A DNA stretch of 64,000 nt from an uncultured Chloroflexia bacterium (GCA_963776285.1 CAVZLW010000007.1:185415-249414); one strand, 5' to 3'; numbered from the stretch's first letter, positions 12,470 to 34,872 are shown. Program-made: numbers and translations. The notes: generated by a model not told the origin, from the letters alone.

Positions 12470-12968
12470 CTAGCGGTAGCCGCGCAGCGCCGCGACCGGC
12501 GCGAGCGCGGCGATGGCGAGGCGCGTCACGGGCCAGGGCGGACTCGAGGGACGGATCTCGCGACCGAAGGCCCGGAAGAGGACCGGAAGGTGGAGCGGCT
12601 TCGGCATGCCGCCCTTGCCAAGCTTTCCCTCGTTGGCGAGTCGGAAGAGGACCTCGAAGAGATGGCGAGTCTCGAGGGCGGGCCCGAAGGTCTCGACGTA
12701 GTGGGCCTCGGTGTCGGTCGGGTTCCAGAAGCGATGGTTCGGTGGCCGGTGGGATGGTCACCGTCTCGCCCGGTCCCGCCCGGAACTCCTTCCCGTCGAC
12801 CCAGAACGCGAGCTCGCCCGAGATGATCTCGAACCCGCTCACCTGCTCGGGATGGGTGTGGTTCGGCTCGCGCTCTTCGCTCGCCGGGCTCCAGCACTCG
12901 ATCCGCAGGGTCTGACGGCTCCCCGGGGCGACGGGACGGTCGCCCGGTTCGGGGTCGATGAAGCGCAT
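12470..12968 (-). pseudogene. Cupin-domain protein gene with a +1/-1 frameshift near 12745
   Basis: The N-terminal part (MRFIDPEPGD...HTHPEQVSGFEIISGELAFWVDGKEFRAGPGETVTIPP) is in one frame. The family-typical continuation (HRFWNPTDTEAHYVETFGPALETRHLFEVLFRLANEGK...RGYR-stop at 12470-12472) is in another. Same family as the intact cupin at 61243..61740. Confidence 0.55.
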
Positions 12969-13512
12969 CCGTTGTCCGGTGCGCTGGTTGACGATGAACG
13001 ACTGGTCCACGCAGGCCTCCTCGGCAGCTATCGACACGACGCTGGGTCCCGCCTCAGGAGCGGCCCTCGCGGGGCGGCCGGCGGCGCAGCCCGACCGGCG
13101 TCGGTGCCGGTGTCCCGGCAGACGTCGAGCGGCGCGTCGAGGTGGATCGTCTCGCGAATGCGGCCCATGCCAGGCTCCCCACCAATCCCGAGTCTCCGGG
13201 TCGATCCCGATGGCCCCAAGTGGACCACGGCGGGTCCCGAATCCGGCAGGCGCTTCGTTCGAATCGGGCACTCGCCGAAGCCTCCGCCGGGGCGATGCCC
13301 CGGCTCCCACCAACCGCCGGCAGCAGGAGGCGCTCTGCTCCCCCGGCACGAGCCCCGCCACCGCCTCCTGCCGCAATGTCTGTCTCCTGATCGGGAGGCG
13401 TCGGAGCGTGGCGGGGCCGCGACGTGTCATCCGCGAGAGCATCGAAGATGACGGACCGCGATCTCGGGCCCGATCGGCATGTCGCACAATTGGCGGAAGA
13501 GGTGAGTCCGTG

Positions 13513-14244
13513 CCGAGCAGCCCCGACCGACACCCCGCCAGCGACCGCGGCGACGAGATCCCGAGCGTGCCGATCCGCGGGCTCGAGCGCACGGCGCCCC
13601 GCTCGGCGGGCCTCGCCGGGATCGTCTTCTCGGTCCTGTTCGTGGCATCCCTGCTGCTGGCCGGCTCCCGGCCACCGGAAGGTCTCGGCGACGCCGCATT
13701 CGTCGAGTGGTTCCAGGCGCAGGGGCTGGCCGCGGTCACCTTCTCGGCGCTCTACCTGGCGCCGTTCGCGGGGATCGCCTTCCTGTGGTTCATCGGCGTC
13801 ATCCGTCACCGCATCGGCGCTGGTGAGGATCAGTTCTTCGCGACGGTGTTCCTGGGAAGCGGCCTGCTCTTCGTCGCGATGTACTGGGCCGCGGCAGCCG
13901 TGCTCGCGAGCCTCGTCGCCGGCAACCGCTACGATGCCGCCCCGGCACTGGGCGCCGGTCGCATCGAGGAAGTGCGCTCGGTCGCCTTCTCCTTCCTGTT
14001 CGTGCTGGCTGCGCGCGCCGCTGCCGTCTTCATGATCACGACCTGCACGATCGCCCGGCGCACGGCGATCTTCCCGCGGCCGCTGACGCTCGCGGGCTAC
14101 GCCATCGCCATCCTGATGCTCCTGAGCCTCTCGTTCCTGCAGTGGATCGTGCTGCTCTTCCCGGTATGGGTCTGCGTGGCAAGCGGCTACATCCTCGTCG
14201 CCGAGCTGCGCACCCTCCGGGCGGCCCCCGGGCCGGCTGGCTGA
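13513..14244 (+). CDS. Hypothetical integral membrane protein
   Basis: GTG start with RBS GGAAGAGG. ~244 aa with 5-6 TM helices. The longer ATG-initiated ORF upstream is low-complexity. Confidence 0.5.
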   Translation, partial: PSSPDRHPASDRGDEIPSVPIRGLERTAPRSAGLAGIVFSVLFVASLLLAGSRPPEGLGDAAFVEWFQAQGLAAVTFSALYLAPFAGIAFLWFIGVIRHRIGAGEDQFFATVFLGSGLLFVAMYWAAAAVLASLVAGNRYDAAPALGAGRIEEVRSVAFSFLFVLAARAAAVFMITTCTIARRTAIFPRPLTLAGYAIAILMLLSLSFLQWIVLLFPVWVCVASGYILVAELRTLRAAPGPAG

Positions 14245-14339
14245 CGCTCACCAGCGCGTCGCAGCGCCCCGGGTCGCGAGCTCGCCGTCGTCTTCCGACG
14301 GTCGGCACCGATCGACTCCCGGGCCATCGCCCCGGCGTA

Positions 14340-15093
14340 GGATCGCCGTAACGGCTCGGTCAGCCACGACGTCAAGGCGGTCTACACCTACTACCTGGGC
14401 TTCTTCGACGGCAACCCGGCGACGCTCCACCAGCTGCCGCCGGTCGAGGGGGCCAGGAAGACGGTCGAGTACATGGGCGGCGCGGACGCCGTCCTGGCGC
14501 GAGCCCGCGCCGACTTCGAGAAGGGGGAGTACCGCTGGGTCGCGCAGGCGGTGAACAACGTCGTCTTCGCCGACCCGGACAATGCCGAGGCCCGCGCACT
14601 CCAGGCGGACGCCCTCGAGCAGCTCGGCTACCAGGCCGAGAACGGGACCTGGCGCAACTTCTACCTCTCTGCGGCGAAGGAGCTCCGCGACGGCGTCACG
14701 AAGGCCGCGGTGCCGAGCACCGCCTCGACCGACCTTGCGCGGGCGATGCCGTCGGCGATGATCCTGGACTACGTCGCCGTCCGCCTCAACGGGCCGGGTG
14801 CCGCGGACCTCGCCTACGTCTTCGACCTGTCGCTCAGCGACGTCGGCGAAAGGTATCTGCTCGAGGTCGGCAACGGCGTGCTGAACTACACCAGGGACGC
14901 CACGGTCGACCATCCCACCGCGACGGTCACGCTCACGCGTCAGGCACTCGTGGGGATCGTGATGGGCCTGGCGACCGTCGAGGACCTGGTCGCGGGCGGG
15001 TCCGTCGCGATCGACGGCGATGGAGCGGCTTTCGCGGACTTCCTCGGCCTGCTCGACAGCTTCGAGTTCTGGTTCAACATCGCCACACCGTGA
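14340..15093 (+). pseudogene. C-terminal fragment of an alkyl/aryl-sulfatase (SdsA1/BDS1-type) gene; the MBL-fold catalytic N-terminus is absent
   Basis: Reading starts directly after a TAG at 14337. The product contains the dimerisation-domain signature VKAVYTYYLGFFDGNPATLHQLPPVEGARKTVEYMGGADAVLARARADFEKGEYRWVAQAVNNVVFADP and an SCP2-like C-terminus. The ~400-aa N-terminal domain is missing. Confidence 0.6.
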
Positions 15094-15224
15094 GGCTCTC
15101 GCGGCCCGCCGACCGCCCGTCGGCCGGCCCCGGCGGGCCAGGCTCGGATAGAGTGCGCGGCGGGCGCCCTCGCGTCCTCGCGTCCTCGCCTCGATGGACC
15201 ACAACCTGCTTCGGAGGACGGCAC

Positions 15225-16019
15225 ATGCGCCGCATGCTCATCGGACTGGGGATCATCACCATCGGCGTCGTGGGCGCGGCCTGCTCCTCGACCGGTGGTG
15301 GTGGTTCCGCCTCGGCGGGCGGGACCGGCGGCACGCTCGACGGCACCGCCTGGACCCTGAAGACCTACGCCGTCGGCGGCACCGCGACCCCGGTGCCCGC
15401 CGGCATGGTCATCGACGCGAAGTTCGCCGGGGGCAAGGTCTCGGGCTTCGCCGGCTGCAACGTCTACACCGCCTCGGCCACGATCTCCGGGTCGACGCTC
15501 AAGATCGGCCAGGCCGCGACCACGTCGATGGCCTGCGATGAGGCCGTCAGCAAGGTGGAGACGGCGTATCTCGCGAACCTTGCCCAGGCTGCGACGTTCA
15601 CCGCGACGGCCGACAGCCTCACGATATTCGGCAGCGACGGCAAGCAGCTGCTCGTCTACGCCGCGGCATCCGCCAACCCGCTCGAGGGCGAGTGGAACGT
15701 GACCGGATACAACAACGGCAAGCAGGCTGTCACGTCGCCGATCGCCGGCACGACGCTGACCGCCACCTTCACGGCCGACGGCCAGGTCGGTGGGAACGCC
15801 GGCTGCAACAGCTACCACGGTCCCTACAAGCTTGACGGCACCTCGCTGACCGTCGGTCCGCTCGTCACGACGCGCATGGCCTGCGACCAGGCGATCATGG
15901 ACCAGGAGACAGCGTTCCTGGCCGCGCTCCAGACGCCCACCAAGGTCGAGACGTCGGGAGCCACCGTGAGCCTGCGCGATGCGTCCGGCGCCACCCAGGT
16001 GGTCCTGGGCCCGAAGTGA
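15225..16019 (+). CDS. Lipoprotein with two tandem META (HslJ-like, DUF306) domains
   Basis: RBS GGAGGA. Signal peptide with lipobox MRRMLIGLGIITIGVVGAAC. Two repeats each carry GxAGCN..., TxMAC and (D)EA/QA motifs. Confidence 0.8.
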   Translation: MRRMLIGLGIITIGVVGAACSSTGGGGSASAGGTGGTLDGTAWTLKTYAVGGTATPVPAGMVIDAKFAGGKVSGFAGCNVYTASATISGSTLKIGQAATTSMACDEAVSKVETAYLANLAQAATFTATADSLTIFGSDGKQLLVYAAASANPLEGEWNVTGYNNGKQAVTSPIAGTTLTATFTADGQVGGNAGCNSYHGPYKLDGTSLTVGPLVTTRMACDQAIMDQETAFLAALQTPTKVETSGATVSLRDASGATQVVLGPK

Positions 16020-16161
16020 CCGCCGCGTCGTACGTGGCACGACACGTCGATCGTGGTCGGAGAGGACGACGACCCGTATGCTCCTCGCGTCGTCGGCGCG
16101 ACAACCAGGGCCGCCCGGCCCGAGGTGGCTGTCCCTTCGCGCCGACGCGAGGAGGACGAGG

Positions 16162-16626
16162 ATGCCTTCGGCAACGCACACGGTGACGATCCATCGCCCG
16201 GCAAAGGAGGTGTTCTCCTTCGTCGCCGATGGCACGACCGCTCCCCGGTGGCGTCCGGGCGTGCTCGACATCACGCTCGCGTCGGGGTCCGGCGTCGGCG
16301 CGACCTACCGCCAGGGCGTCAAGGGACCGGGCGGCCGGCGCGTCGCCGCCGACTACGAGATCACCGTCTTCGAGCCCGACCGCAGGCTCGCCTTCCGGGC
16401 GATCGCGGGTCCGGTCCGGCCGACCGGCGAGTATCGCCTCGAGGAGACACCCGACGGGACGCGGCTGACCTTCTCGCTCGCCGTCGAGCTCTCGTTCTTC
16501 AAGCGGCTCGTGATGGCGGGCGCGGTCCAGAAGACGATGGACGCCGAAGCCTCGGCGACGGAGCGCCTGAAGCAGGTGCTCGAGGCGCAGGGGCCCGCCG
16601 CGACCGCAGGACCCGCCGGCGGCTGA
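16162..16626 (+). CDS. SRPBCC (polyketide cyclase/dehydrase-like) domain protein
   Basis: RBS GGAGGACGAGG. 154 aa (MPSATHTVTIHRPAKEVFSFVADGTTAPRWRPGV...). Confidence 0.7.
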   Translation: MPSATHTVTIHRPAKEVFSFVADGTTAPRWRPGVLDITLASGSGVGATYRQGVKGPGGRRVAADYEITVFEPDRRLAFRAIAGPVRPTGEYRLEETPDGTRLTFSLAVELSFFKRLVMAGAVQKTMDAEASATERLKQVLEAQGPAATAGPAGG

Positions 16627-17286
16627 GCCCGGCCTGGCCGCTGGAGGGCGCCCGACGATCGAGAACGTCGATCGTCCGGGCCAGTCGAGGACGGTGGACG
16701 CTGGGCTGTGTCGGGCGCAGCGGGACGCGTTCCCGGCCGTCCTGCCGACGTCGTCCAGCTCGAGGGTTGGCAGAGCCTACGACACCGCGGGTGCGGGAGA
16801 GCCATGCGCGCTCGCCCGGCGGTTGCGCACGAGTGCGCCGATCCAGATGAGCCCACCGGCGAGCAGGATCAGGGCCGGGATCCACGGCGTGGAGAGACCC
16901 AGCCAGGAGTCGGGGATCGTCGCCCAGTGATCCCAACGCCACCGGCCCGGCGGCCGGGCAGGTCGGCAGCGAGGTCGGTCCGGGCGGTACGACCACGAGC
17001 AGCAACTGCGCGCCTTCGGTGACTTCGAGCCGATCGCGCCACTGGACGATCTGCTCGACCGTCCGGCCTGGAAGTCGGCCAGGAGCTGCGAATAGGCAAG
17101 GGGCGGGCGCGCGGCGAATGGGCCGCGCGCGTCGATCACCCCGCCGATGATCCGGCCAGAGCAGGAAGCCCAGGCGATCCAGCGCGTGCGAGGCATTCGA
17201 CCAACCCTGGCTCGGGCGGCCCCTCCGCCCTCACACGATCTTCACGCACGCCACGGGTCAGGACAACGTGCCGATCGGCACAGACG

Positions 17287-17700
17287 TCAGGGCCGGCTCT
17301 CGGCCGCCCGCACGTCCTTGAGCCGGCGCCAGCCGCCCGCCCGGTTGTTCGCGACGATCTGTCTCAGGATGGCTGCCAGCGCCGTCGCGTTGATGGGCTC
17401 ACCCTGGCGGATCGCGATGGTCCGCGCGGTCAGGTTGTCGTGGCCACCGGTGATGATGCCGTCGGGGTCGGGGACGATGCCACCGTCGTACAGGAAGACG
17501 TTGACATGGTCCTTCGCCGCGAGCAGGGCGCAGATGTTGCCGTGCAGGACGAAGTAGGGACGGTTGGTCCGCTTGATCGTCTCGACGACCTCCGGGTCCG
17601 CCGCGTGAGCCAGCGCCCGAACCTCGCGGCAGATGGCCCGCTGCCAGTCCGGCAGCCCCTCGATGTAGGCGTCCACGCGCGGATCTGCCGTGTCGCTCAT
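17287..17700 (-). CDS. DUF1801 (YdhG-like) domain protein
   Basis: 138 aa (MSDTADPRVDAYIEGLPDWQRAICREVRALAH...KRTNRPYFVLHGNICALLAAKDHVNVFLYDG). Confidence 0.7.
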   Translation of the reverse strand: MSDTADPRVDAYIEGLPDWQRAICREVRALAHAADPEVVETIKRTNRPYFVLHGNICALLAAKDHVNVFLYDGGIVPDPDGIITGGHDNLTARTIAIRQGEPINATALAAILRQIVANNRAGGWRRLKDVRAAESRP

Positions 17701-17795
17701 CGCGCGATCATACGAGCCGACCTCGGCGATGGCGCAGGGTCGGCATCCGTCGCATCGGTCCCGGCACCGGAGCGCCGCCCTGGACCACGAGATCG

Positions 17796-18317
17796 TCAGT
17801 CCCCGCCCCCGGCGGGCGCGCCGGCCGGAACGGCGCTGAGCTCCGTGGCGATCGACGCGGCCCAGTCCCGCATCGCCGGCCAGTCTCGATGGTCTCCCCA
17901 GGGCGACGGGACCATCGAGACGATCCGCCGCTCGACGAAGCCGAGCTCCTTCTTGTCCGCCTTGCCGGGGAAGACCCGGTGCTCCCGTGCCCCGACGAGC
18001 TCGAGGAGCCTGGTGCCCTCGGCCGCGTCGGCGGGATCGACGATGTCGCGCCCGAGCGGCCCGCTCGAGAACAGCCACACGGAGCGCGTGCGCAGCGCAT
18101 CCGCGGAGCCCTTGACGAGGTCCCGAGCGGGCGCCATCCAGCGGCCCCAGTGGACCGCGCTCCCGACGATGACGGCGTCGTAGGGGGCGACGGACTCCAC
18201 GTCCTGGGCGTCGACGACCTCGACCTCGATGCCCGCCTCGCGGACGGTCTCGGCGATCCAGCCGGCGATCTCCCTGGTGCTGCCGTGCTTCGACGACACG
18301 GCGATCAGCGTCTTCAT
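17796..18317 (-). CDS. Flavodoxin-family protein
   Basis: RBS AGGAGGGAA. MKTLIAVSSKHGSTREIAGWIAE...YDAVIVGSAVHWGRWM. Confidence 0.75.
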   Translation of the reverse strand: MKTLIAVSSKHGSTREIAGWIAETVREAGIEVEVVDAQDVESVAPYDAVIVGSAVHWGRWMAPARDLVKGSADALRTRSVWLFSSGPLGRDIVDPADAAEGTRLLELVGAREHRVFPGKADKKELGFVERRIVSMVPSPWGDHRDWPAMRDWAASIATELSAVPAGAPAGGGD

Positions 18318-18369
18318 GGCGTTTCCCTCCTGGGACGCGCGACTCTTGCCCGGAGCTCGAGGCCGTCGC

Positions 18370-18918
18370 CTACGACACCGGCACGCGCGCGAGCGCGAGC
18401 GCCGGGTTGGCCATCTCCATCAGCGACACGCCGATGCCGTACGTCAGGAACCGCCCTTCGGGCACGAGCTCGATGACGCAGCTTCCGGCCTTTCGCGCCT
18501 CGGGCACGAGCTTCTCGAGGTCCTTCGACACCGAGCCGATGTCGAGCGAGCCGGCCGGGTGGACCGTCGCCCTGGCGTGGAAGGTGATGGTGGCCGGCGG
18601 GATGGGCGCAAGCAGCGCGAGGATGCCGCCGCGACGGACCGGCACGGTGACGGCGACCTGCTGGCCGGTCACGACCTGGCGCGCCTTCCAGCCATCCGCG
18701 GCGACTGCCACGAACAGCCGCCGGTTGGCGGTCCCGTACACGACACCGCTCGAGCGCGGCTCGCCCGCGGCGTTGACGTGGCTGACGACGGCGAACGAGG
18801 CCCTGGCGAGCGCCCGCCAGACCGCCTCGCTGCTCACGCGGGCCCTCTCGGTCGCAGTCTCGTTCGCTGCCGCGGCGGACGTGGTCGCCGGCAGCGCGCT
18901 CGTTCCGTTGGCGTTCAT
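18370..18918 (-). CDS. Pyridoxamine 5'-phosphate oxidase-family (F420/FMN-binding split-barrel) protein
   Basis: The core AVWRALARASFAVVSHVNAAGEPRSSGVVYG...RRLFVAVAADGWKARQV is PPOX-like. The Ala/Thr-rich N-terminal 25 aa may be N-terminal to the true start. Confidence 0.65.
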   Translation of the reverse strand: MNANGTSALPATTSAAAANETATERARVSSEAVWRALARASFAVVSHVNAAGEPRSSGVVYGTANRRLFVAVAADGWKARQVVTGQQVAVTVPVRRGGILALLAPIPPATITFHARATVHPAGSLDIGSVSKDLEKLVPEARKAGSCVIELVPEGRFLTYGIGVSLMEMANPALALARVPVS

Positions 18919-19077
18919 CGACGATGTCTCCAGCCCGGGTCACGGGGCGTCGCTCCTGCTCCGCCGTCGCATGACCCTCTCCCACCCTGCGGCTCAACCG
19001 CCACCCGGCGCATCCATCGTTGGACGGACGCGCTGGTTGGTTCTGGGGGGCGGGAGGAGAATGCGAAGCCCGAGGGC

Positions 19078-21231
19078 TCAGCCGAGCAGGCCGAGCTCCC
19101 GGCCCCGGGCAACAGCCTCGACCCGGTTCGCGGCCCCGAGCTTGCCCGAGATCGTGTGAAGGTGCGACTTGACGGTGCCCACGGTCACGAAGAGCTCTGC
19201 CGCGACCTGGCTGTTGGACCGCCCGAGGGCGACCAGGCGCAGGACCTCGAGCTCGCGCGCGGTGAGCTCCTCGACGAGAGGGTCGGGACCTTCGCCCTCG
19301 CGGCGACGGGGCTCGCGGCCGGCGTTCGCGAGCAGCGGGCCGATGCGCGCGAGCGTCGCCTGGGCGAGCCGCGCGCTCGGCGCGTCGCCGGCCGCTGTTG
19401 CGAGCTCGAGGGCGCGACGCGCGGCGGCCTCGGCGAGCTGGGGCTGCCCGAGATCGGCCCGGGCGCTGGCCATGACGGCCCAGACCGCTGCGCTGTCGGT
19501 CGCGCCCGACTCCCTCGGGGTCCGCTCGAGCTCCGCCTGGCACAGTCGGGCCGCCCGCTCGGGATCGCCGCGCATGATCGCGATCCTTGCCAGGTCGCCG
19601 ATCGTGCGCCCCACCGCGAGCGCGTTGCCGGCGGCCCGCAGGTCGGGCAGCGCGGCTTCGTAGGCCTCGGCAGCCGCGTCGAGGTCGCCGGCACGGATCA
19701 GCGCCACGCCGAGCAGCGCCGCGGCCGTGCCATGCAGCGTCGCCGCGGCGTCCTCCGGGAGCCCGGCAGGGACGAGGTCGCGCGCGAGGCGCGCCTGCGC
19801 GATCGCGGTGGCGCTGTCCCCTTCGAGCCCGGCGAGCTGCGAGCGGAGGAGAGCGAGCTGGGTGGGAATCGCCGGCCGCATCATCGGACCGCCGTCGTGC
19901 CCGTCGGCGAGCGCGCGTTCGGCGTCGGCGAGCCGCTCGGCGACTCCCTCGGTCTCGCCGGCGAGGAGAAGGCACCAGGCGTACGAGGCGCTGAGCTGGG
20001 CATGGCCGCGGACGACCTCCGGCGGCAGGGCGTCGAGCCACCGCCGGACCGTGCTCAGCTCGCCCGCATTGACGTGCCGTCCCGAGGCGACCGCGACGAT
20101 CCGGCTCGTGCGCTCGAGATCGCCGGACCGCAGCGCGTGGTCGATCGCCTCGTCGTCATCTCCGCGCTCCTCGTGCCAGGCCGACGCTCGCGCGTGCAGC
20201 TCGGCGACCTCGTCGGGACGGAGCGTCCGAAGCCGAGCGCGGAGAATCCCGGCGAAGAGCGCGTGATAGCGGTACCAGCGTCGCTCGTCGTCGAGCGGGG
20301 TGATCAGGAGGTTTGCGCGCTCCAGCCCTTCGAGGCGCGCCTGGCCCCCGGGCTCCCCCGTCACCGCCTCGCACAGCGGACCGCACAGGCGGTCGAGGAT
20401 CGAGGTGCGCAGGAGGAACTCCTGGGAGTCGCGCGGCAACCCGGCCAGGACCTCCTCGACGACGTAGTCGAGGATGTAGCGGTGGCTGGCCCCGAACCGC
20501 CGCACCAGGTCGGCATGATCGGGTCGGCCGCGCAGGGAGACCGCTGCCAGCCGCAGCGCCGCGGCCCACCCCTCGGTTCGGTCGGTGAGCTCGTCGATCT
20601 CCGACGGGGGGAGGTCAACCCCGGACGAGCGGACGAGCGAGGCAGCTTCGGCCGCGGTGAAGCGAAGGTGGTCCGCGCGGACTTCGAGGAGCTCGCCGCG
20701 GGCACGCAGGCGCGCCAGCGGAAGCGGCGGGTCGGCCCGGGTGGCGATCGCGAGACGGGCCCCGGGCGGGAGACGCTCGACGAGCGCCGCGACGAATCCG
20801 TGGATGGCCGCTTCGTCGATCACGTGGTAGTCGTCCAGCACCACGACGGCGCCGCCTCCTGCAGCGGCGAGGCGGTCGAGGACGTGGGCCAGGGCCAGCT
20901 CGGGATCGAAGGACCCGGCGTCGAACGCCCCCGTGTCCGCCCGTTCGCCGGCGAGCTGTGCCGTGGCCGCCGCGAGATAGCGCGCGAACCGGACGATGTC
21001 GTTGTCGCGCGCGTCCAGCGAGACCCACGCGCCCCGGACGTCCGGCTGACCCAGCCAGTCGGCGAGCAGGGTGCTCTTGCCGAACCCGGCGGGCGCCGAG
21101 ACGAGCACGAGTCGAGCGCCGGCGGAGGTGTCGAGCTGCGTCCGCAGCCGCTCGCGGTCGACGTGGCGCGTGCCTCGCGCCTGGACGCCGAGCTTCGTCG
21201 TGATCAGGGCATCTCGCCCTGGCATCTCCAT
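19078..21231 (-). CDS. Large LuxR-family (MalT/LAL-type) regulator: AAA/P-loop NTPase, helical repeats and C-terminal LuxR HTH
   Basis: Walker A LVLVSAPAGFGKSTLL. C-terminal LTARELEVLRLVALGRSNSQVAAELFVTVGTVKSHLHTISGKLG. Confidence 0.85.
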   Translation of the reverse strand: MEMPGRDALITTKLGVQARGTRHVDRERLRTQLDTSAGARLVLVSAPAGFGKSTLLADWLGQPDVRGAWVSLDARDNDIVRFARYLAAATAQLAGERADTGAFDAGSFDPELALAHVLDRLAAAGGGAVVVLDDYHVIDEAAIHGFVAALVERLPPGARLAIATRADPPLPLARLRARGELLEVRADHLRFTAAEAASLVRSSGVDLPPSEIDELTDRTEGWAAALRLAAVSLRGRPDHADLVRRFGASHRYILDYVVEEVLAGLPRDSQEFLLRTSILDRLCGPLCEAVTGEPGGQARLEGLERANLLITPLDDERRWYRYHALFAGILRARLRTLRPDEVAELHARASAWHEERGDDDEAIDHALRSGDLERTSRIVAVASGRHVNAGELSTVRRWLDALPPEVVRGHAQLSASYAWCLLLAGETEGVAERLADAERALADGHDGGPMMRPAIPTQLALLRSQLAGLEGDSATAIAQARLARDLVPAGLPEDAAATLHGTAAALLGVALIRAGDLDAAAEAYEAALPDLRAAGNALAVGRTIGDLARIAIMRGDPERAARLCQAELERTPRESGATDSAAVWAVMASARADLGQPQLAEAAARRALELATAAGDAPSARLAQATLARIGPLLANAGREPRRREGEGPDPLVEELTARELEVLRLVALGRSNSQVAAELFVTVGTVKSHLHTISGKLGAANRVEAVARGRELGLLG

Positions 21232-21469
21232 CCGGCGATCGGCCTCAGCTACGGGCGTCGGGACGGCACAGGCCTCCGGAAGTGTCCCGGCGGCGAACGC
21301 GTTCGCCCAGAGCCGTTCGACGCGACTTCACCCGAACCTTTGCCCAGGCGGGCCTCTTCGACGTTTCAACCACCCGGTCCATCCGCGGATAGATGTGCCG
21401 GCCGTTGGTTGAGCCCCACGCTCCGTGATGAGATCCGGCAGCACAAGACCGGAGCATGCGAGGTCCCCG

Positions 21470-24251: not shown

Positions 24252-25253
24252 TCAGGGTTTGGTCGACCCGCTCAACGTCTGCTCCGGTAGGACCTTGACG
24301 GTGATCGTCGTGCTCGCCCCCTGGCCCTGGAGGTCGGCCAGGAGGGCCGACATCGGCGGCAGCGTCCCATCGCCTCCGATCTCGGAGTCCACGTTGCCAT
24401 CGGTCGCGGCGACGGTGATGACCCGGTAGTTCGTCCCCGTCAGCCAGGTCGTGAGGGCATCGCCGGCCTGCTGCTCCAGGCGGTAGTCGACCAGGACCCG
24501 GTAGCTGGTGATCCCGAGGGGCAGGATCACCACGACGAGCGCGATCACGATGACCAGGCCCGCCGTCCGCCTGGCTGCCCTGCTCGCCTGCTGGCGGGCG
24601 ACCGTCCCGTAGCCCAAGAGCGCGAGGAGCACGACGCCGGCCAGCACGATCGCCACGAAGTTCGTGAAGAAGAGGAGGAACGCGCCGCCGGCAAGCCCCG
24701 CCTGGCCATCGGCGAGGAGGATGCCGGCCGCGGCCAGCGGGGGGACCAGCGAGACCGCGATGGCCACCCCGGGGAGGGCATCCGAGACGTCCTCGCGGCC
24801 GAGGGCGAACGCCCCGGCGGCGCCTGCCGCGAGCGCGACGACCAGGTCGAGGAGGCGAGGGGCGGTCCGGGCGAGGATCTCCGGGGTGATACTGCCTCCG
24901 GTGAGCGCGATCCGCGACATCAGGGCCGCGGTCGCCATCACGAAGACGACGCCGACCGCCACGATGGCCACCGAGCGGACGATGTTGCGCCCGTCGCCGA
25001 TCAGGATGGCCAGGGATGTCGCCATCATCGGCGTCATGAGCGGGGCCACGATCATCGCCCCGATGATGACCGCCGAGGAGTTCCCGATGAGCCCGCCCGC
25101 CGCGATGACCGTGGCGAGGAACAGGAGCACGAAGAACTTCACCAGGCGGTCGGCGACGGGGGGCCGGCCGTACAGGAGCTTGTCCTCGAGGACCTCGAGG
25201 TTTGCCGGGAGCGGCAGGCCTCCGTGCAGCAGGCTGGCGATCCGCGTGAGCAT
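24252..25253 (-). CDS. DUF389 (TIGR00341) family membrane protein
   Basis: 333 aa, multi-TM, with the characteristic IIGAMIVAPLMTPMMATSLAIL segment. Confidence 0.8.
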   Translation of the reverse strand: MLTRIASLLHGGLPLPANLEVLEDKLLYGRPPVADRLVKFFVLLFLATVIAAGGLIGNSSAVIIGAMIVAPLMTPMMATSLAILIGDGRNIVRSVAIVAVGVVFVMATAALMSRIALTGGSITPEILARTAPRLLDLVVALAAGAAGAFALGREDVSDALPGVAIAVSLVPPLAAAGILLADGQAGLAGGAFLLFFTNFVAIVLAGVVLLALLGYGTVARQQASRAARRTAGLVIVIALVVVILPLGITSYRVLVDYRLEQQAGDALTTWLTGTNYRVITVAATDGNVDSEIGGDGTLPPMSALLADLQGQGASTTITVKVLPEQTLSGSTKP

Positions 25254-25783
25254 GCTCCCTCACCTCCGACCCGATCCGTCTCCCGGTGAGTCGCCGTCGT
25301 CCATCCGCCGGCGGCGCCTCCCGACGAGCATCATGCCCTGCCCGATCGGCGGCTGCGTCGGCGCTGGGCACTCGGTGCTCCGCACATACCCCGACGGGAG
25401 CGCGACCGAGCGCGATGGCGCATTCGGCGGGTTCGTGCAGCACCGGTTGCCAGCAGGCCGAGCGTGGCGACACGCTGGACCGCCTCGGAGCTGAGCGGTC
25501 TGCTCGATGGCGCGCGTCCGGCAGTCGCCGGCGGCGATGGCAACCACGAATGCCCGGCCGAGTCCCGCGGCGGCGTGGTCGACGGCGGACGGCGGCGCGA
25601 CGGCGCCGGTGGGGGGTGCAAGGTCGAGCATGGTCCTGACTCCTGCCCTGCAATCCCGTGCCAGGACCCTGGGTCGTCCGCGGCCCTGCCAGCCACCGCA
25701 GGACGACGGGGTTTTCGGACGGCGCTCATGGAGCCCGCTCGCTCGGCGCCCGGCGCTGGAGCGGCGGAGTGGACCTGGACGCC

Positions 25784-26179
25784 TCAGCTCCCCTCCGCCT
25801 GCACCGACAGCCCCGCGGCGGTCCACGCCTCGAATCCACCGATCACGTCGGCCACGCTCGCAAAGCCGAGGTCGCGCAGGGTCGCTGCGGCGAGGCTCGA
25901 GGAGTAGCCGTGAGCGCAGATGAGGATCACCGGGCGGGTGAGGTCGGAGAAGGCGGGATCGTCGTAGCCCGAGCTCGGATCGAGCCGCCAGAACAGGACC
26001 GAGAGAGGGACATGGACCGAGCCCGGGATGGTCCCCGTCGCACGACGGTCGTCGCTGCAGCGCGTGTCCACCAGGAGCGCGCCCTCGGCCATCGCGCGAT
26101 GGGCAGCCTCGGGGGATAGGCGCTCGATCCGACCCCGTGCGGCCCCGAGCAGGCCGTCGATCGTCTGTCGCTCGCTCAT
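25784..26179 (-). CDS. Rhodanese-like sulfurtransferase domain protein
   Basis: RBS GGGAGGGGG. 132 aa. The active-site loop is ICAHGYSSSLAAATL (Cys-containing CxGxxR-like). Confidence 0.75.
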   Translation of the reverse strand: MSERQTIDGLLGAARGRIERLSPEAAHRAMAEGALLVDTRCSDDRRATGTIPGSVHVPLSVLFWRLDPSSGYDDPAFSDLTRPVILICAHGYSSSLAAATLRDLGFASVADVIGGFEAWTAAGLSVQAEGS

Positions 26180-26339
26180 CGCCCCCTCCCGATGCACGCT
26201 CATGATCGCCGCATCGTGACAGCGTACAGGCGCCGCGGCAGCCTCCCTTCCGCGTCGTCGGCGACCTCGACGGAGTGCCATCCTTCGGCGAGGCGCCCGA
26301 CGTGCGCGCGGGGCAGCGGGCGCTGCGCCCGACCTCGCG

Positions 26340-26918
26340 TCAGCCTGGGGTGCGCTCATTGCGGGCGGCCGCCTCCGCGACTCTCGTGATCCGCGCCGCC
26401 CGAGTCTCGGGTCGCCGCGCGACCGCGATCCAGCCGAGCAGCATCCTTCGCGTCGAGGCGGGGAACGCCGCGAAGTTGACCTCGGCGTGCGGGCGGTTCT
26501 CGAGGGCCGTCGCGAGGTCGTCCGGTACCTCCAACCGCTCGGCGCTATCCAGGATCTCCCAGGATCCGTTCGCCTTCGCCCGGCGGATTGCGGCGAGGCC
26601 CGCCGGAGCCATCCGTCCCTCGCGGATCAGGCGCTCGACGCGCGCCTTGTTGGACGCCGCCCACACGCTGCGCGGCTTGCGCGGCGCGAAGTAGAGCTTG
26701 CCGCGCTCGTCGTCCACGTTGCCGCCGGTGCTGTCCACCCAGCCGAAGCACAGGGCTTCCTCGACGGCCGCCTCGTAATCGAGGCCGACTCGGCCGGACC
26801 GCGGCCGCCAGGTCACCAGCCAGGCGCCACGGACGGTCGCGTGGTTCGCCTCCAGCCATGCCCGCCACGTGGCGCGATCGTCGGCGTGGACGTGCGGCGC
26901 ATCGTCGAGGACGGACAT
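26340..26918 (-). CDS. YdeI/OmpD-associated (DUF1905/DUF1801-like) family protein
   Basis: WRAWLEANHATVRGAWLVTWRP...AVEEALCFGWVDST...GKLYFAPRKPRSVW. Confidence 0.7.
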   Translation of the reverse strand: MSVLDDAPHVHADDRATWRAWLEANHATVRGAWLVTWRPRSGRVGLDYEAAVEEALCFGWVDSTGGNVDDERGKLYFAPRKPRSVWAASNKARVERLIREGRMAPAGLAAIRRAKANGSWEILDSAERLEVPDDLATALENRPHAEVNFAAFPASTRRMLLGWIAVARRPETRAARITRVAEAAARNERTPG

Positions 26919-27010
26919 GCTCCGAGTCTAGTGCCGCCGCATGCCGGTGCGCGACGGGCGAGCGCCCGCCCGGCACGCGGGGATCGTGCCGGGCGACGCT
27001 TGACTCCGAG

Positions 27011-27658
27011 CTAGGCGGCCAGGCTGGTCGCAGGGGCGCCGACGAGCACGAACGCGGTCCGCCAGTCGCCGCCGTCGATGAGCTGCAGGCGGATGTTCAG
27101 CCAGGCGACCGCCTCGAGCTCGCGCGCTGCGGAGAGCGGGCCGACCAGGACGGGGCGGAAGCCGATGGAGGAGGCGAGCTCGGCCACGGTGGCTGAAGCG
27201 ACGTCGTCGTCGGTGGCGTAGAGGGCGTCGAGCGTCGTGCCGTGCGTCGTCGGGTCCGCCTGGACAGCGCCGAAGATCGTGTTGAAGGCCTTCGCGACGT
27301 GCGCCTCGGGGAGGAGCCCGGCCACCCGTTCGGCCACGGAAGGCCCGCCGACGTTCGCCAGCCCGGAGTAGTCGGGCTTGAGCGGGTTCGTCGCGTCGAT
27401 GACCACCTTGCCCGCGGCGACGGGGCGAATGTCCGCGACGACGGCCTCGACCTCGCCCGAGGGGACGGCGAGGACGATGGCCTCGGCCTCGCGCGCGGCG
27501 TCGGCGGTCGTCGGGGCCGCGGAGCCACCGAGGTCGCTCGAGACCTGCTCCGTCTTCTTCGCGTTGCGGCCCGCGAACGTGACCTCGTGGCCGGCTCGCA
27601 TGAACGATCCGCCGAGCGCCTGACCGACGTTCCCGGTGCCGATGATCGCGATCTTCAT
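27011..27658 (-). CDS. fno: NADPH-dependent F420 reductase
   Basis: MKIAIIGTGNVGQALGGSFMRAGHEVTFAGR. Rossmann fold with the typical Fno/NpdG family pattern. Confidence 0.8.
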   Translation of the reverse strand: MKIAIIGTGNVGQALGGSFMRAGHEVTFAGRNAKKTEQVSSDLGGSAAPTTADAAREAEAIVLAVPSGEVEAVVADIRPVAAGKVVIDATNPLKPDYSGLANVGGPSVAERVAGLLPEAHVAKAFNTIFGAVQADPTTHGTTLDALYATDDDVASATVAELASSIGFRPVLVGPLSAARELEAVAWLNIRLQLIDGGDWRTAFVLVGAPATSLAA

Positions 27659-27713
27659 GATGTGCTTCCCTGTCCTTCTCGCGAGCCGCGTCTGACTCTT
27701 GACGTGTGTCTGT

Positions 27714-27788
27714 TGGCAAACCACTATTGCCACTGAGCGAAGTCTCCCACGACTTCGTCCGGAGGTCAAGTATCTTGTCTGAAGACAA
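27714..27788. promoter_or_regulatory. Two inverted repeats (operator candidates) in the fno / XRE-cupin regulator divergent promoter region
   Basis: TGGCAA-N7-TTGCCA at 27714-27732 and the perfect TTGTCT-GA-AGACAA at 27775-27788, 7 nt before the regulator start codon. A TTGACG -35-like hexamer lies at 27697-27702. Confidence 0.35.
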
Positions 27789-27795
27789 AGCAGGG

Positions 27796-28431
27796 ATGGC
27801 CGCCCCCTCGATCCGCATCGGACACGAGACGCGGCGCTGGCGCCTCGAGCGAGGCCTGACCCTGGCGCAGGTCGGCGAGCGCTGCGGCCTCAACATCGGC
27901 TACCTCTCGCAGATCGAGAACGACAAGGCAGTCCCCTCGCTCGAGGCGCTCGCCTCGATCGCATCCGCCCTCGATGTCCCGCCCGCGTGGCTGCTGCTCG
28001 ATTCCGCGTCGCCACCGCGGGTGGTCCTCGAGACGGACCGCCCGCGCACGGTCATGCCGAACGGCGGACAGCTGAGCGAGGTCGACGCGGGGACCTCGCG
28101 GGATGTCTGCATCCTCGAAGCGGTCGTGCCGGCCGGCGGCGCCACCGGCGTCCATGCCCATGCCGGGGATGAGCACCACGTGGTGCTGACCGGCAGGTGG
28201 CGGCTCACGCAGGGCGATCACGTGGTCGAGCTCGGTCCCGGCGACTACCTGGCCTGGGATCCGACGGTGCCGCACGACGTCGAGAACATCGGCGACGAGC
28301 CCGGTCGCCTCCTGGTGATCTACCCGCGCCATGCCGCGCGACGGCCGCACGGCGGATCCGAGGGCGGACCGGCGCGGGGCGAGGGCGACCTGCCGCCCGA
28401 TCACCCCGAGAGACGTGCGTCGCCCGCCTGA
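27796..28431 (+). CDS. XRE-family HTH regulator with C-terminal cupin domain
   Basis: HTH is IRIGHETRRWRLERGLTLAQVGERCGLNIGYLSQIENDKAVPSLEAL. Cupin region is GVHAHAGDEHHVVLTGRWRL...GDYLAWDPTVPHDVEN. Confidence 0.75.
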   Translation: MAAPSIRIGHETRRWRLERGLTLAQVGERCGLNIGYLSQIENDKAVPSLEALASIASALDVPPAWLLLDSASPPRVVLETDRPRTVMPNGGQLSEVDAGTSRDVCILEAVVPAGGATGVHAHAGDEHHVVLTGRWRLTQGDHVVELGPGDYLAWDPTVPHDVENIGDEPGRLLVIYPRHAARRPHGGSEGGPARGEGDLPPDHPERRASPA

Positions 28432-28468
28432 TCGTCTCGAGAGCCGCCGGCCGTCTCCGCGCTATCCG

Positions 28469-29227
28469 CTACGCCAGGCCGCGCGCCGCCCAGGCCACGG
28501 CGCTGACCACGAACGGCTCGGAGAGGACCTGCCGCCGGCAGGCCTCGCGCAGCTCCATGCGCCGGTTTTCGTCGAGGCTCGCCAGGTAGGCTCCGGCCGG
28601 GCCCACGCCGCGCGTGAATGGCTCCCACCAGGATTCGAAGGTCGGGTGCTCCAGGCTCACGGCGAGCGCGGCTGCCTCGATCTCGTGCAGTCCGGCGGCC
28701 CCGAACAGCTCGGCAAGGTGGCCCTCGCGGGTGCCGGCGAGGGTCGACTCGTCGTCGACCGACGGATCGAGCGCACGCGCGGCCTCCCAGAAGAGCCGGA
28801 GCGGCCCCTGGCTCCCACCGTGATCCCAGACGCACGCCGAAACGACACCATGACGCCGGGTCACGCGGGCCATCTCGGTGATCCCCGCGACTGGATCCTT
28901 CATGAAGTGGACGACGAGCTGCGCGAGAGCCGCGTCAAACGCATCGTCCGCGAACGGCAGCAGCTCGGCGGGAGCTTGCCGGACATCGACGCCCGGGTGG
29001 CGCGCCCGCGTCGCGGCGACGAACGGCTCGGACGGATCGACGGCCGCCACCGCTCCAGGCCCCAACCGTGAGACCAGCTCGCCCGTGAGCGCGCCGGTGC
29101 CGCAGCCGACGTCCAGGACCCGCTGTCCGGCGCGTATTCCCGCGAAGCTCGCCAGCTGACCCGAGAGCAGGCGGGAGTATCGACCCATGAAACCGTCGTA
29201 TGCCTCGGCGGCGACATCGAAGCTCAC
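28469..29227 (-). CDS. Class I SAM-dependent methyltransferase
   Basis: Motif I is VLDVGCGTGALTGEL. 252 aa. Confidence 0.8.
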   Translation of the reverse strand: MSFDVAAEAYDGFMGRYSRLLSGQLASFAGIRAGQRVLDVGCGTGALTGELVSRLGPGAVAAVDPSEPFVAATRARHPGVDVRQAPAELLPFADDAFDAALAQLVVHFMKDPVAGITEMARVTRRHGVVSACVWDHGGSQGPLRLFWEAARALDPSVDDESTLAGTREGHLAELFGAAGLHEIEAAALAVSLEHPTFESWWEPFTRGVGPAGAYLASLDENRRMELREACRRQVLSEPFVVSAVAWAARGLA

Positions 29228-29375
29228 GGGCAGAATTCTACGCTCTCACCGCGCCGGATCGCCGCCGACGGCGTCCTCGTGCTTCGAACGACGCCGTCGT
29301 TGACGGCGTTGACGACTGTCCGACCATGCTCCGACGACCGACAACCCGGCCGTCCGCCTCCCGTCGCGAGGAGCC

Positions 29376-30431
29376 ATGTCCGTCGCAACCTCGGAGCTGG
29401 ACTCCGTCCCGGCGCTCGTCATCGGTGACCCGCTGCGCGCACCCGTCGGGCGCGCCGTGGCCGCCACGCTCGTGACCGCCGTGGTCTTCGTCGTCTTCGC
29501 CTGGACCAGCAAGGAGATCAGGGCCCTGTACGGCCACGCGCCATGGCAGAACGACCCGTACGACGCCGTGGTCTCGTTCACCCTGTTCTTCGTGCCGCTC
29601 GGCGCCGCGCTCCTCGTGATCCGAGCGCTGCTCTGCCGGCGCGATGCGCCACTGCCCGTGACGCGCGTGGTCGGGGTGCTCCGCGCGTCGCGCGTCGTGC
29701 TCGCGGCCGTGCTTGTAACGCTCGCCGCCGACTGGCTCAGCGTGCTCCTGCGAGCCGACGAGGAGACGTGGACTGCGACGACCGAGGGCCTGGTCGTCGC
29801 GCTGGCAATCGTGACGCTCGTGGCAGGACCGGCCGCGTTCCTGGTTCACCACGCCGGGCTCGCGTCCCGCGGGTGGCGGTCGCCTGCGGGTCCCGACGCG
29901 CTGGCCGACGCCCTGGCACTCGGCCTGCAGTGGAGCGCGAGACTGGGGCCGGTCGAGGGGCCAGCGCGGGCGCTCGTCACGGCGGTCGGGACGCACGCCG
30001 CACCACTCCTGCGACGGCACCCGCTGGCGGCGGCGGCGCTGGGCTCCCTGGCGTTCGGCGCTGCGATCTGCGTGGCGGCGGTCCGGGAGGAGGGCGTTGC
30101 GCCCGTGCTCGGGCTCGTCTTCGGCGTCGCCTTCTGCGGGATGTTCGCATTCCTGGCGGCAGCGGGCAGCTACCTCGGACTGGTGCGCGCGGAGCAGCCC
30201 CTCGTCGGCGCCGGCCGTCGCCTCGCCGACGCCGCGGTCCTCGCGGCCGCCGCCGTTCCGGTCGCCCTCGCCTTCCGGGGGTCGCTGTGGTGGATCGTGG
30301 GCTCAACCGAGCCGACGGCCGACCTCGTCGAGCTGGTCGATCTCCTGCTCGTCGCGGCCGTGGCCACGTTCGCCCTCGTGGTCGTCGCTGAGACGCTCGT
30401 CGGCCTCCACCGGGGCAGACAGGTGGAGTGA
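29376..30431 (+). CDS. Hypothetical polytopic membrane protein
   Basis: 351 aa with ~8 predicted TM helices and no recognisable family. Coding is supported by its length and a composition consistent with membrane proteins. Confidence 0.5.
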   Translation: MSVATSELDSVPALVIGDPLRAPVGRAVAATLVTAVVFVVFAWTSKEIRALYGHAPWQNDPYDAVVSFTLFFVPLGAALLVIRALLCRRDAPLPVTRVVGVLRASRVVLAAVLVTLAADWLSVLLRADEETWTATTEGLVVALAIVTLVAGPAAFLVHHAGLASRGWRSPAGPDALADALALGLQWSARLGPVEGPARALVTAVGTHAAPLLRRHPLAAAALGSLAFGAAICVAAVREEGVAPVLGLVFGVAFCGMFAFLAAAGSYLGLVRAEQPLVGAGRRLADAAVLAAAAVPVALAFRGSLWWIVGSTEPTADLVELVDLLLVAAVATFALVVVAETLVGLHRGRQVE

Positions 30432-30440
30432 GCCTCATGG

Positions 30441-31385
30441 TCAGCCTGGTTCGGCGGAGACCGGTCGCTCGCGCCGCGGGATCGGGAGCCTGATCCGGCC
30501 CTGGGCGATGGCGACCCCGAGGAGGATGACGACGGCACCGATCGGCTCGTTCCAGCCGAGGGGCTCGCCGAGGAACGCGGCCCCGACCACGACCGCGACC
30601 ACGGGCGTCACGTACGTGACCGAGCTCGCGACCGCGCTTCCGGCGACCAGGACGATCTGGGTGTTCAGGATGTAGGCAACGCCCGAACCGAGCGCACCCA
30701 GGGCCAGCATCCCCGCGATCGTGTCGAACGCCACCGGCGTGACGATCCGCCCGCCCCCGAGAACGGACTCCAGGATGACGACCGGCACGAGGAATGCGGC
30801 ACCGAGGAGGACCTGGCCGGTCGCGAGCGCGATCGGCCCGTCGCCGGTGGCCGCGAGGTGGCGTCGGGTATAGGGAAACGCCAGGCCGTAGCAGCAGATC
30901 GCGGCGACGCAGGCGAGGATTCCGGCCAGCTCGCCGCCCTCGAAACCCTGCCAGACGGCGAGGACGACGAGGACGCCCGCGAAGCCGACCATGAGTCCGA
31001 CGATCCGCTCGCGCGTCGGGCGCTCCTCGGGGAAGGCGAGCAGCGTGACCGCCAGGGTGGTGAGCGGCGTCGCCGCGTTGATGATCCCGGCCATGATCGA
31101 GGAGACATGGGTCTCCCCGAAGGCGAAGAGCGTGAAAGGGATGCTGCAGAAGAGCAGGGCCGTCACGCACAGGTGACGCCAGGTCCGGGCCGCGGCCGGG
31201 AGTGACGTTCGGGTGAGCCGAGCGATTGCGAGCAGCGTGACCGCCCCGACCGCCAGCCGCCCGAAGGCGACCTGGACGGGCGTGAGCGACTGCAGCCCGA
31301 GCTTGATGAAGAGGAACGAGCAACCCCAGATCACGCCAAGCGCGAGGAACGACGCCTGCCAGGGCACCGCGCGACCGGACTTCAT
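30441..31385 (-). CDS. DMT superfamily (EamA-type) transporter
   Basis: RBS GGGGGAGG. 314 aa with 10 TM helices and two EamA repeats (GVIWGCSFLFIKLGL...). Confidence 0.8.
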   Translation of the reverse strand: MKSGRAVPWQASFLALGVIWGCSFLFIKLGLQSLTPVQVAFGRLAVGAVTLLAIARLTRTSLPAAARTWRHLCVTALLFCSIPFTLFAFGETHVSSIMAGIINAATPLTTLAVTLLAFPEERPTRERIVGLMVGFAGVLVVLAVWQGFEGGELAGILACVAAICCYGLAFPYTRRHLAATGDGPIALATGQVLLGAAFLVPVVILESVLGGGRIVTPVAFDTIAGMLALGALGSGVAYILNTQIVLVAGSAVASSVTYVTPVVAVVVGAAFLGEPLGWNEPIGAVVILLGVAIAQGRIRLPIPRRERPVSAEPG

Positions 31386-31678
31386 GAGCCTCCCCCTACC
31401 CCGAATGGCAGGTCCAGCATGCTCTCGCGCACGCGCATGCGCTCGCGGGAAGCGGACATCTCCGTCCCTCTCGGGCGCGACGTGGATGCGATGGGACGCG
31501 CGCATCGCGGATCGGCGCGACCTGTTCGCCGGCCGCCGACCAGCCGCCGGCAGGCGGGTTACCGTTGGCCGACGCGCTGCGACGGTCCGTGACCATCGGC
31601 CTCGAGCGGGTCCTGGCGGGTCTGCCGGCCAGGGCGCACAACCAGGAGATGGCGGGCGTGACCGGTGAGTCCACGGGC

Positions 31679-32481
31679 ATGATCCATCTCTGCATCGCAG
31701 GCGCCACCGGCTGGGCCGGACGCGCCCTGGTCGACGCCGTTCTCGAGGCAGATGACCTGGCCCTGCGTTCGGCGGTCGCACGCTCGCCGCCGGAATGGAC
31801 CTCGGCACGGCGCTGGGTCGGGACGCGCTGGACGTTCCCGTCTACGCGACCGTCGACGAAGCGCTCGAGGGGGTCGACGTCCTGGTCGAGTACACCTCGC
31901 ACACGGCCGCCAAGGCGAACACGATGGCGGCGATCGAGCGCGGCGTCGCGGTCGTGATCGGCTCCTCCGGCCCGACCGCGGCCGACTACGCGGAGATCGA
32001 CGCGGCCGCCCGGGAGCACGGCGTCGGCGTGATCTCCTCGGGCAACTTCTCGCTGACGGCGGCGATGGCGCAGGCGGCCGCGCTGCTCGTGGCCCGCCAC
32101 CTGCCGCAGGCGGAGATCATCGACTACTCCAGCGCCACGAAGCCGGACGCGCCGAGCGGGACGTCGCGGGAGCTTGCGGAACGACTGGCCCAGGTCCGGC
32201 CGCCGGTCCTCGGTCGCCCCCTCGACGAGACCGACGGTCTCCGGGAGGCGCGGGGAGCGTCGGTCGCCGGCGTCCCCGTGCACTCCATCCGGCTACCGAG
32301 CTTCTCGGTCTCCACGGAGGTCATCTTCGGCCTCCCCGACGAGCGGTTGACGATCCGTCACGATGCCGGCCTGTCGGCCGCGCCGTACGTGTCCGGAACG
32401 CTCCTCGCGGTTCGCCTGGTGCTCGGGCGCGTCGGGCTGACGCGCGGGCTCGACACCCTGCTCCTCGACGCCCGGGACTGA
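31679..32481 (+). pseudogene. dapB: 4-hydroxy-tetrahydrodipicolinate reductase gene with an apparent 1-nt frameshift near 31790
   Basis: The N-terminal NAD(P)-binding part (MIHLCIAGATGWAGRALVDAVLEADDLALRSAVARS) is in one frame. The remainder (MDLGTALGRDALDVPVYATVDEALEGVDVLVEYTSHT...) is in the +1 frame. Restoring one G in the gccgccgg run gives ...ARSAAGMDLG..., which matches the family. Confidence 0.6.
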
Positions 32482-34844: not shown

Positions 34845-34872
34845 CGTCGATCACGACCATGGAGACCGAGAC

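Follow-up and report, generated by a model that had tools for sequence, protein, structure and literature searches.

The 64,000-nucleotide (nt) stretch of DNA analysed here (hereafter the window) comes from an uncultured Chloroflexia bacterium (GCA_963776285.1 CAVZLW010000007.1:185415-249414) and contains three genes with a broken reading frame: a Cupin_2 gene, a gene resembling dapB, and a gene of a family of ~140-amino-acid (aa) proteins. Frame breaks at a cupin, at dapB and at 16780-17200 had been claimed in a reading made from the sequence alone (the sequence-only reading), and all three were found to be present, backed by homology beyond the geometry of open reading frames (ORFs). The G+C content of the window is 72%, and ORFs called mechanically are therefore unreliable; genes were mapped by codon-position GC and codon usage and then checked against Pfam, and about 65 genes were confidently coding. 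A scan of these genes for hidden compensated shifts revealed none, and apart from the broken genes ~65 genes, ORFs of at least 900 aa included, were uninterrupted. The nearest relatives of the studied genes were found in uncultured soil Chloroflexota (Limnocylindrales and 'Chloroflexia' metagenome-assembled genomes [MAGs]) and next in Thermoleophilia and other Actinomycetota. We fetched the loci of relatives (L001 to L085), 83 of which carry a DapB-like gene (L001 and L004 to L085) and two of which (L002 and L003) served for comparison with the cupin locus. The best homologues of the cupin and of the DapB-like protein in the protein collections were at most 91% identical, with no near-identical copy among them, and no JGI metagenome contig matched exact-flank DNA patterns in which the indel was allowed to be present or absent.

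The disrupted Cupin_2 gene (12455 to 13010, − strand), which has 184 codons in relatives, starts with GTG at 13010 and has its ancestral TAG stop at 12457-12455. The phase of the frame plot of GC at third codon positions (GC3) changes at ~12740, and in the unrepaired gene the Cupin_2 domain is divided over two frames; when the frames were joined, a single unbroken Cupin_2 match was obtained (PF07883; profile positions 9-68 of 70; E = 6e-14; 51.9 bits, cutoff 27.2). The repaired protein is 87 to 91% identical to many 184-aa soil homologues and shares with them the conserved NHTHPEQ and NHRFWN segments, in which the H-x-H...E and H residues of the metal-binding pattern are present. In a tblastn search with the cupin of L003, aa 1-97 matched in frame −3 (13010-12720) and aa 91-184 in frame −1 (12739-12458). 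DNA alignment of the window (CCGGCCACCGAACC) with L002 and L003 (C(C/T)GG-CAGTGAAC) placed one extra base within 12752-12736 (CCACCGGCCACCGAACC; − strand). At 85 columns invariant among homologues, the repaired cupin had one conservative private change; over these columns the remaining codons gave neither a measurable relaxation of selection nor an excess of private substitutions.

Two further lesions at the cupin locus went beyond what had been described from the sequence alone. An in-frame premature TAG stands in place of a conserved Asp codon, GAC, at 12470 to 12472 (− strand), a change that needs two substitutions, and the 15 nt after it, which contain the ancestral stop, show no change; the window thus reads RGYR-stop-PADL-stop where the conserved C terminus is RGYRDPADL-stop, and the last five residues, DPADL, are lost. 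Upstream of the cupin, both L002 and L003 carry a 153-aa SRPBCC/Polyketide_cyc2 gene, and in L003 the cupin is followed by a TetR gene. In the window, all that is left of the SRPBCC gene is its opening ~25 codons (13092 to 13168, − strand; aa 1-23 alone match, at 13168-13100), fused straight to the intergenic DNA that precedes the cupin; ~390 bp, stop codon included, have thus been deleted. The TetR-family regulator downstream (11618 to 12304, − strand) is intact, with 88.7% identity to L003 and 94.6% to L002, and the SRPBCC-cupin-TetR trio of the relatives is thus represented by 25 codons, a broken cupin and an intact TetR gene. Three lesions, each of a different kind, lie within ~700 bp, and two of them cannot come from base-calling, which speaks for genuine decay of the SRPBCC-cupin unit. 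At this locus, real decay would be recognisable without reads, by the mixed lesion types and the deleted operon partner. In the closest relative, L002, the cupin is also split (8381-8934 of ERZ1700618 contig_EHDLDABF_68286), into 56 and 128 aa, by a one-base loss elsewhere in the gene, and transposase fragments (rve_3 and HTH_32) lie between the cupin and the TetR gene.

Truncations of a sulfatase, a major facilitator superfamily (MFS) and an alcohol dehydrogenase (ADH) gene, which the sequence-only reading had taken as a sign of genuine local decay, were confirmed by partial coverage of their Pfam profiles. The MFS fragment (11063 to 11509, − strand) is C-terminal and covers positions 272-347 of 347 of MFS_1, i.e., the last 76, with no upstream room for the missing ~350 aa. 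The alkyl-sulfatase fragment (14341 to 15093, + strand), likewise C-terminal, retains the dimerisation domain (26-139 of 139) and the C-terminal domain (2-125 of 125) without the catalytic N-terminal metallo-beta-lactamase domain, and its coding signal sets in 41 codons upstream of the first codon at which translation could start. The ADH fragment (5363 to 5632, + strand) covers positions 29-65 of 104 of ADH_N. All three are judged to be genuine truncations, because the missing parts would not fit into their flanks. Four damaged genes (MFS, cupin, SRPBCC and sulfatase) and the ~140-aa family gene lie in an island at 11-17.3 kb, and the only damaged genes elsewhere are the ADH fragment and the DapB-like gene; we estimated a chance of ~3% that an island of ~6 kb with three remnants would hold two of the three frame-broken genes. 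No insertion sequence (IS) element or remnant of a transposase was noted there.

The DapB-like gene (31679 to 32481, + strand) is 803 nt long, where 804 nt are expected, and is broken after codon 36. Its GC3 phase changes at ~31790, with GC3 values of 0.9 to 1.0 on both sides of the break. Addition of one base restored the exact family sequence (...SAVARSAAGMDLG...) and gave matches to PF01113 DapB_N (1-124 of 124; E = 1e-22) and PF05173 DapB_C (6-108 of 121; E = 2e-17), and comparison of GCTC-GCCGCC in the window with GCTCGGCGGCC in L001 showed that a G is missing after 31786 (CTC-GCC versus CTCGGC, 31783 to 31788, + strand). The claim that the cupin and dapB can each be restored by a one-base change was thus borne out, Pfam matches and DNA alignments being in agreement; their placement in a G/C run was loosely right, as the indels of the window sit in runs of two to three bases and not in long homopolymers (no run in the window reaches 8 bases, and only one reaches 7). 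The repaired protein (267 aa) is 88 to 89% identical to many soil homologues and differs from them once (L to M) at 147 columns invariant among 14 homologues, which is within homologue-to-homologue variation. No further lesion beyond the single missing G was found in the gene, and every neighbouring gene has an end-to-end Pfam domain match. The truncated 228-aa product of the window's ORF (P0014) occurs on a single contig of 988,776 bp (NCBI and ENA), and this was the only truncated protein among the 120 best hits of a protein search.

The gene was unbroken in 82 of the 83 fetched loci that carry it. In the remaining locus, L036 (10115-10125; MFD06435.bin.2.178, contig_19661), an independent +1 shift was observed at residues 40/41 (GGCCTCGGACC, compared with GGCCTGGACC in L011). 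This break lies 12 to 15 nt (4 codons) from the −1 break of the window, and the L036 locus is otherwise without frameshift signature. In the 35 loci that we classed as coming from short-read or isolate assemblies, the DapB-like gene was never broken; L036 is a long-read MAG.

Inactivation of dapB had been thought surprising in the sequence-only reading, dapB being normally essential. This expectation was not supported, as the gene belongs to a distinct DapB-like clade without the catalytic histidines. The window protein passed the TIGR00036 equivalog model marginally (135.4 bits, cutoff 122) and matched solved DapBs with E values of 1e-30 to 1e-32, but D-Y-S-S-A-T-K-P-D-A-P-S-G-T of the window aligned to ELHHxxKADAPSGT of 5KT0 and 1C3V; its motif is DYSSATKPDAPSGT, compared with ELHHxxKxDAPSGT in solved DapBs. 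The canonical substrate-site consensus is E(L/A)HHxxKxDAPSGTA, in which (Escherichia coli numbering) His159 is the general acid, His160 binds carboxylate and Lys163 polarises the substrate (PMC11489326). Both histidines are absent from 83 of 83 clade members (80 species-representative genomes plus other contigs), which read D-Y-[A/S]-S-x-x-K and retain the lysine and DxPSGT, with A or V as its second residue. The nucleotide loop is GATGW(A/T)G throughout the clade and GxxGRMG in canonical DapB.

Compared with DapB (4-hydroxy-tetrahydrodipicolinate reductase, EC 1.17.1.8; TIGR00036; PDB 1ARZ, 1C3V and 5KT0), the window protein thus has the same DapB_N and DapB_C domains, K-x-D-A-P-S-G-T, a C-terminal R-H-D and a score above the NCBIfam cutoff, but it differs in the replacement of His159/His160 (D-Y-S-S in the window, D-Y-A-S in most of the clade), in the GATGW(A/T)G loop, in a score barely over that cutoff, in the lack of a dap-gene neighbourhood and in a patchy distribution across phyla. 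The clade spans Chloroflexota, Actinomycetota (including Streptomyces millisiae DSM 44918, L075), Acidobacteriota, Gemmatimonadota and an Acetobacteraceae MAG. No conserved neighbourhood was found, the gene context being different in every relative examined; in a search confined to the 64-kb window and the fetched loci, no DapB with the HH motif was found in the window or in the 85 loci, nor any other DapB in the window or within 10 kb in the 83 loci, and a literature search returned nothing relevant on a characterised histidine-less DapB paralogue. As judged from these features, the clade is conserved and presumably functional, and its member in the window is very unlikely to be the housekeeping reductase and very probably an accessory paralogue, because both catalytic histidines are missing, there is no conserved neighbourhood and the gene is present in a Streptomyces genome (L075). 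The surprise at an inactivated essential gene therefore falls away, and loss of the DapB-like gene would be expected to have no effect on lysine/diaminopimelate synthesis. In many genomes JGI and NCBI name members of the clade 4-hydroxy-tetrahydrodipicolinate reductase. Since the clade narrowly passes TIGR00036 (one member tested, 135.4 versus 122), its annotation as DapB is probably a systematic error.

The third site (16777 to 17196, − strand), which the sequence-only reading had called possibly broken, was found to be truly frameshifted, not by one indel but by three one-base losses. No Pfam match was obtained in any of the six frames of 16600-17300, and coding potential at 16777-17196 is patchy; an exhaustive HMMER search assigned the 139-aa ORF to a family of ~140-aa proteins with membrane-anchor-like ends, matched at both ends. 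The middle of the ORF, ~49 codons, is out of frame: it misfits the family consensus, and two other frames fit (VEQIVQWRDRLEVTEG...VVVPPG and DLAADL...AGGVGIT). Frameshift-aware alignment to three homologues placed one-base-missing shifts at ~17060 (17051 to 17067; GGACGGTCGAG, where ...GGA CGN GTC GAG is expected), ~16978 (16969 to 16984; CCCGGACCGACCTCGC) and ~16922 (16918 to 16934; GGGATCACTGGGCGACG), all on the − strand, and since the three losses sum to −3, the ORF stays open. The gain in alignment score after penalties was +96 and +146, compared with 0 for an intact TetR control and 0 to 40 for shuffled controls. One homologue also suggested a compensating pair at ~17175 and ~17152, i.e., possibly five indels in all. 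Similarity to homologues, by residue count on the alignments, was roughly equal in the two kinds of segment, at 61 to 69% in the out-of-frame and 70 to 77% in the in-frame ones. The damage is thus indel only: three to five indels, no detectable substitution excess and no stop in the repaired frame. A close homologue, P0184 (111 aa; ENA, 12-kb contig), is out of frame after ...QWRDQLEVTEA, and its tail (RSSCPSSCRPGR...) resembles the out-of-frame translation of the window, so that a second assembly also holds a copy with a broken frame. Shortened homologues of this protein were considered as a sign of systematic error and dropped, their sources being both short-read and long-read.

The concern about assembly errors raised in the sequence-only reading proved well founded. 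The closest relatives are MFD-LR MAGs, whose catalogue was built by Flye assembly of Nanopore reads and a single Medaka round, with no short-read polishing (PMC12313526), and the same group reported that Nanopore bins with less than ~40x coverage still have to be polished to remove indels, which break up gene calls (Sereika et al. 2022, PMC9262707). For the window itself, we infer that the source assembly was long-read only, and probably Nanopore-only, because a contig of 988,776 bp is typical of long-read soil MAGs and the relatives are MFD-LR Nanopore MAGs. One detector, applied to all fetched loci, scored a frameshift signature wherever two neighbouring coding segments on one strand used different frames and that of the upstream segment stayed open far beyond the junction. 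There were 94 calls in 783 kb of long-read coding sequence and 8 in 323 kb of short-read coding sequence; at a strict threshold, 77 and 1 remained, i.e., 9.8 versus 0.31 per 100 kb of coding sequence (~30-fold), and strict signatures were present in 25 of 46 long-read loci versus 1 of 33 short-read loci (Fisher P = 5e-7). The window had 1 call in 50 kb of coding sequence, which is at the clean end but well within the distribution. Calls cluster within loci: the 20-kb locus L005 had 10 signatures, and its leucyl-tRNA synthetase (LeuRS) gene (6200-8700, − strand; ERZ25039498 contig_46234) changes frame at least 6 times, the consecutive pieces that hold its domains occupying all three frames. The long-read signatures are read as assembly errors rather than biology because they are clustered and shatter an essential LeuRS. 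The direction of the shift was tried as a discriminator (69 'extra base' versus 8 'missing base' calls in long-read loci) and dropped as an artefact, since a call depends on a long open tail and codon-position GC favours such a tail for insertion-type shifts only.

Taken together, the findings suggest that two ordinary processes overlap in the window, genuine gene decay and uncorrected long-read consensus indels, a reading to which we assign a probability of about 0.6. Both alternatives that had been offered, pseudogenes and assembly indels, would thus apply, and such a combination is an ordinary phenomenon. Decay would have taken place in a variable island at ~11-17 kb, cutting the MFS and alkyl-sulfatase genes to C-terminal fragments and removing ~390 bp from the SRPBCC gene; the partner cupin would have gained the premature TAG and the +1 frameshift, and a separate ADH fragment lies at 5.4 kb. 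Truncations, deletions and the TAG are read in this way because base-calling errors do not produce deletions and substitutions of such kinds. Uncorrected single-base consensus indels would be the most likely cause of the lone −1 shift in the DapB-like gene and of the three, possibly five, indels in the 140-aa gene. The argument from local decay accordingly serves for the cupin, which lies within the island, but not for the DapB-like gene, whose neighbours are all complete.

Whether each break is real or an artefact we infer site by site. For the cupin, we lean towards a break that is real in the organism. For the 140-aa gene, a real break is possible but is not what we would expect, as its cluster of indels without substitutions or stops resembles the clustered artefacts in LeuRS. 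For the DapB-like gene, a real break is doubtful; a lone indel in a perfectly conserved gene with intact neighbours, in a probably Nanopore-only assembly, is more likely a sequencing error.

On the side of decay, the window resembles known bacterial pseudogenes in variable islands in its MFS, sulfatase, ADH and SRPBCC remnants, in that all affected genes are accessory and in the nonsense codon and frameshift of a cupin beside a deleted operon partner, but it differs in that neither IS elements nor transposase remnants were noted in the island (L002 has fragments) and the remaining cupin codons show no measurable relaxation of selection. On the side of error, it shares with Nanopore-only MAG frameshift errors (IDEEL test) single-base indels in well-conserved genes and their clustering; sibling MAGs from these lineages have ~10 signatures per 100 kb of coding sequence, compared with ~0.3 in short-read assemblies. 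The window differs in having runs of two to three bases instead of long homopolymers, a rate at the clean end and a technology deduced from contig size and relatives.

Several points weigh against the proposed overlap of decay and error. The detector favours insertion-type shifts, and calls from one locus are not independent of each other; the window is cleaner than the average long-read locus (12 per 100 kb), which lowers the prior for an artefact, and the long-read origin of the assembly is itself indirect. Five indels in ~260 nt of an otherwise clean 64 kb could equally well mean that a gene bordering the decay island has really decayed. Conversely, the cupin frameshift could be an artefact, and the premature TAG takes away five residues only and might be tolerated.

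If all single-base breaks were consensus errors, the three genes would be intact in the organism, and the biological damage would be limited to the large truncations and the SRPBCC deletion. The ~30-fold excess of signatures in sibling Nanopore-only loci and the clustered artefacts in LeuRS favour such an account, as does the family-level conservation kept by all three repaired proteins; insertion-type shifts like that of the cupin are the commonest long-read signature (with the caveat of detection bias), and the cupin of L002 is split too, at a different site. We nevertheless consider it unlikely, in view of the non-indel lesion of the cupin (GAC to TAG, two substitutions) and the deleted operon partner, beside which an artefact would have to fall by chance in an already compromised 555-bp gene (~1 to 2% per indel), and in view of the low overall signature rate of the window.

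The converse account, in which the assembly is accurate here, accessory genes are shed throughout the region and all three broken genes are genuine recent pseudogenes, is quite improbable. The window does contain, in its 64 kb, four or more undoubted remnants of genes, its three broken genes (cupin, DapB-like paralogue and small protein) are all accessory, and its signatures are far fewer than those of error-ridden long-read loci, with ~65 other genes uninterrupted. In neutral decay, substitutions normally far outnumber indels. Such decay would leave unexplained why the DapB-like gene has a single lesion, keeps 146 of 147 invariant columns and a GC3 of 0.9 to 1.0 on both sides of the break and stands among intact neighbours, and why the 140-aa gene has three to five indels with neither substitution excess nor stop in the repaired frame; an independent break nearby in another long-read MAG (L036), with none in the 35 short-read or isolate loci, also argues against it.

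We regard as very improbable the reading that the breaks of the window and L036 mark an on/off hot spot, or a DNA-modification site derailing nanopore base-calling, in a mis-annotated, histidine-less DapB-like family with a function other than in diaminopimelate synthesis. A biological switch at codons 36-41 of the DapB-like gene (mutational hot spot, phase variation or translational recoding) is barely credible. In its favour, independent breaks in two different MAGs would fall so close together (~15 nt in a gene of 800 nt) with a probability of ~4% by chance; against it, the two are opposite in sign (−1 and +1) and differ in local sequence, no slippery heptamer or repeat tract lies at the break, 82 of 83 loci are unbroken and both broken cases come from long-read-type assemblies; programmed frameshifting in particular was ruled out by the lack of a slippery sequence and the opposite shift directions.

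With decay and consensus error overlapping as proposed, gene models in the window and in similar long-read soil MAGs are not to be taken at face value, and pseudogene counts from such assemblies are inflated unless checked against reads. The truncated 'dapB' found here must not be read as lysine/diaminopimelate auxotrophy.

Two other candidate breaks in the window were rejected. An apparent multi-frame gene at 5.7-7.5 kb proved, by inspection of its translations, to be three separate complete genes (LUD-like, small membrane protein and TetR), and a weak frameshift call at ~55.8 kb corresponded to a Pro/Ser/Ala-rich low-complexity linker of a lipoprotein.

Two stretches of ~600 nt each (3423-4054 and 52560-53169) were without coding signal in any frame, and an Rfam scan at gathering thresholds returned nothing in them. 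At 41448-41553 (− strand), a c-di-GMP-II-GAG riboswitch aptamer (RF03169) was matched over the full model (1-86 of 86) with 41.7 bits (gathering threshold, 40), just upstream of a − strand gene (40064-41401) that by eye looks like an FAD-linked oxidase. Two very large ORFs, of 935 aa (36955-39858, − strand) and 919 aa (44250-47168, + strand), have long Pro/Ala-rich linkers, and the C-terminal end of the former appears by eye to carry TolB/WD40-like repeats. The gene at 2287-3423 (+ strand) looks by eye like a fusion of a deazaflavin/nitroreductase-like N-terminal part with a membrane domain resembling DUF4260, and a stand-alone DUF4260 gene is present at 34831-35283.

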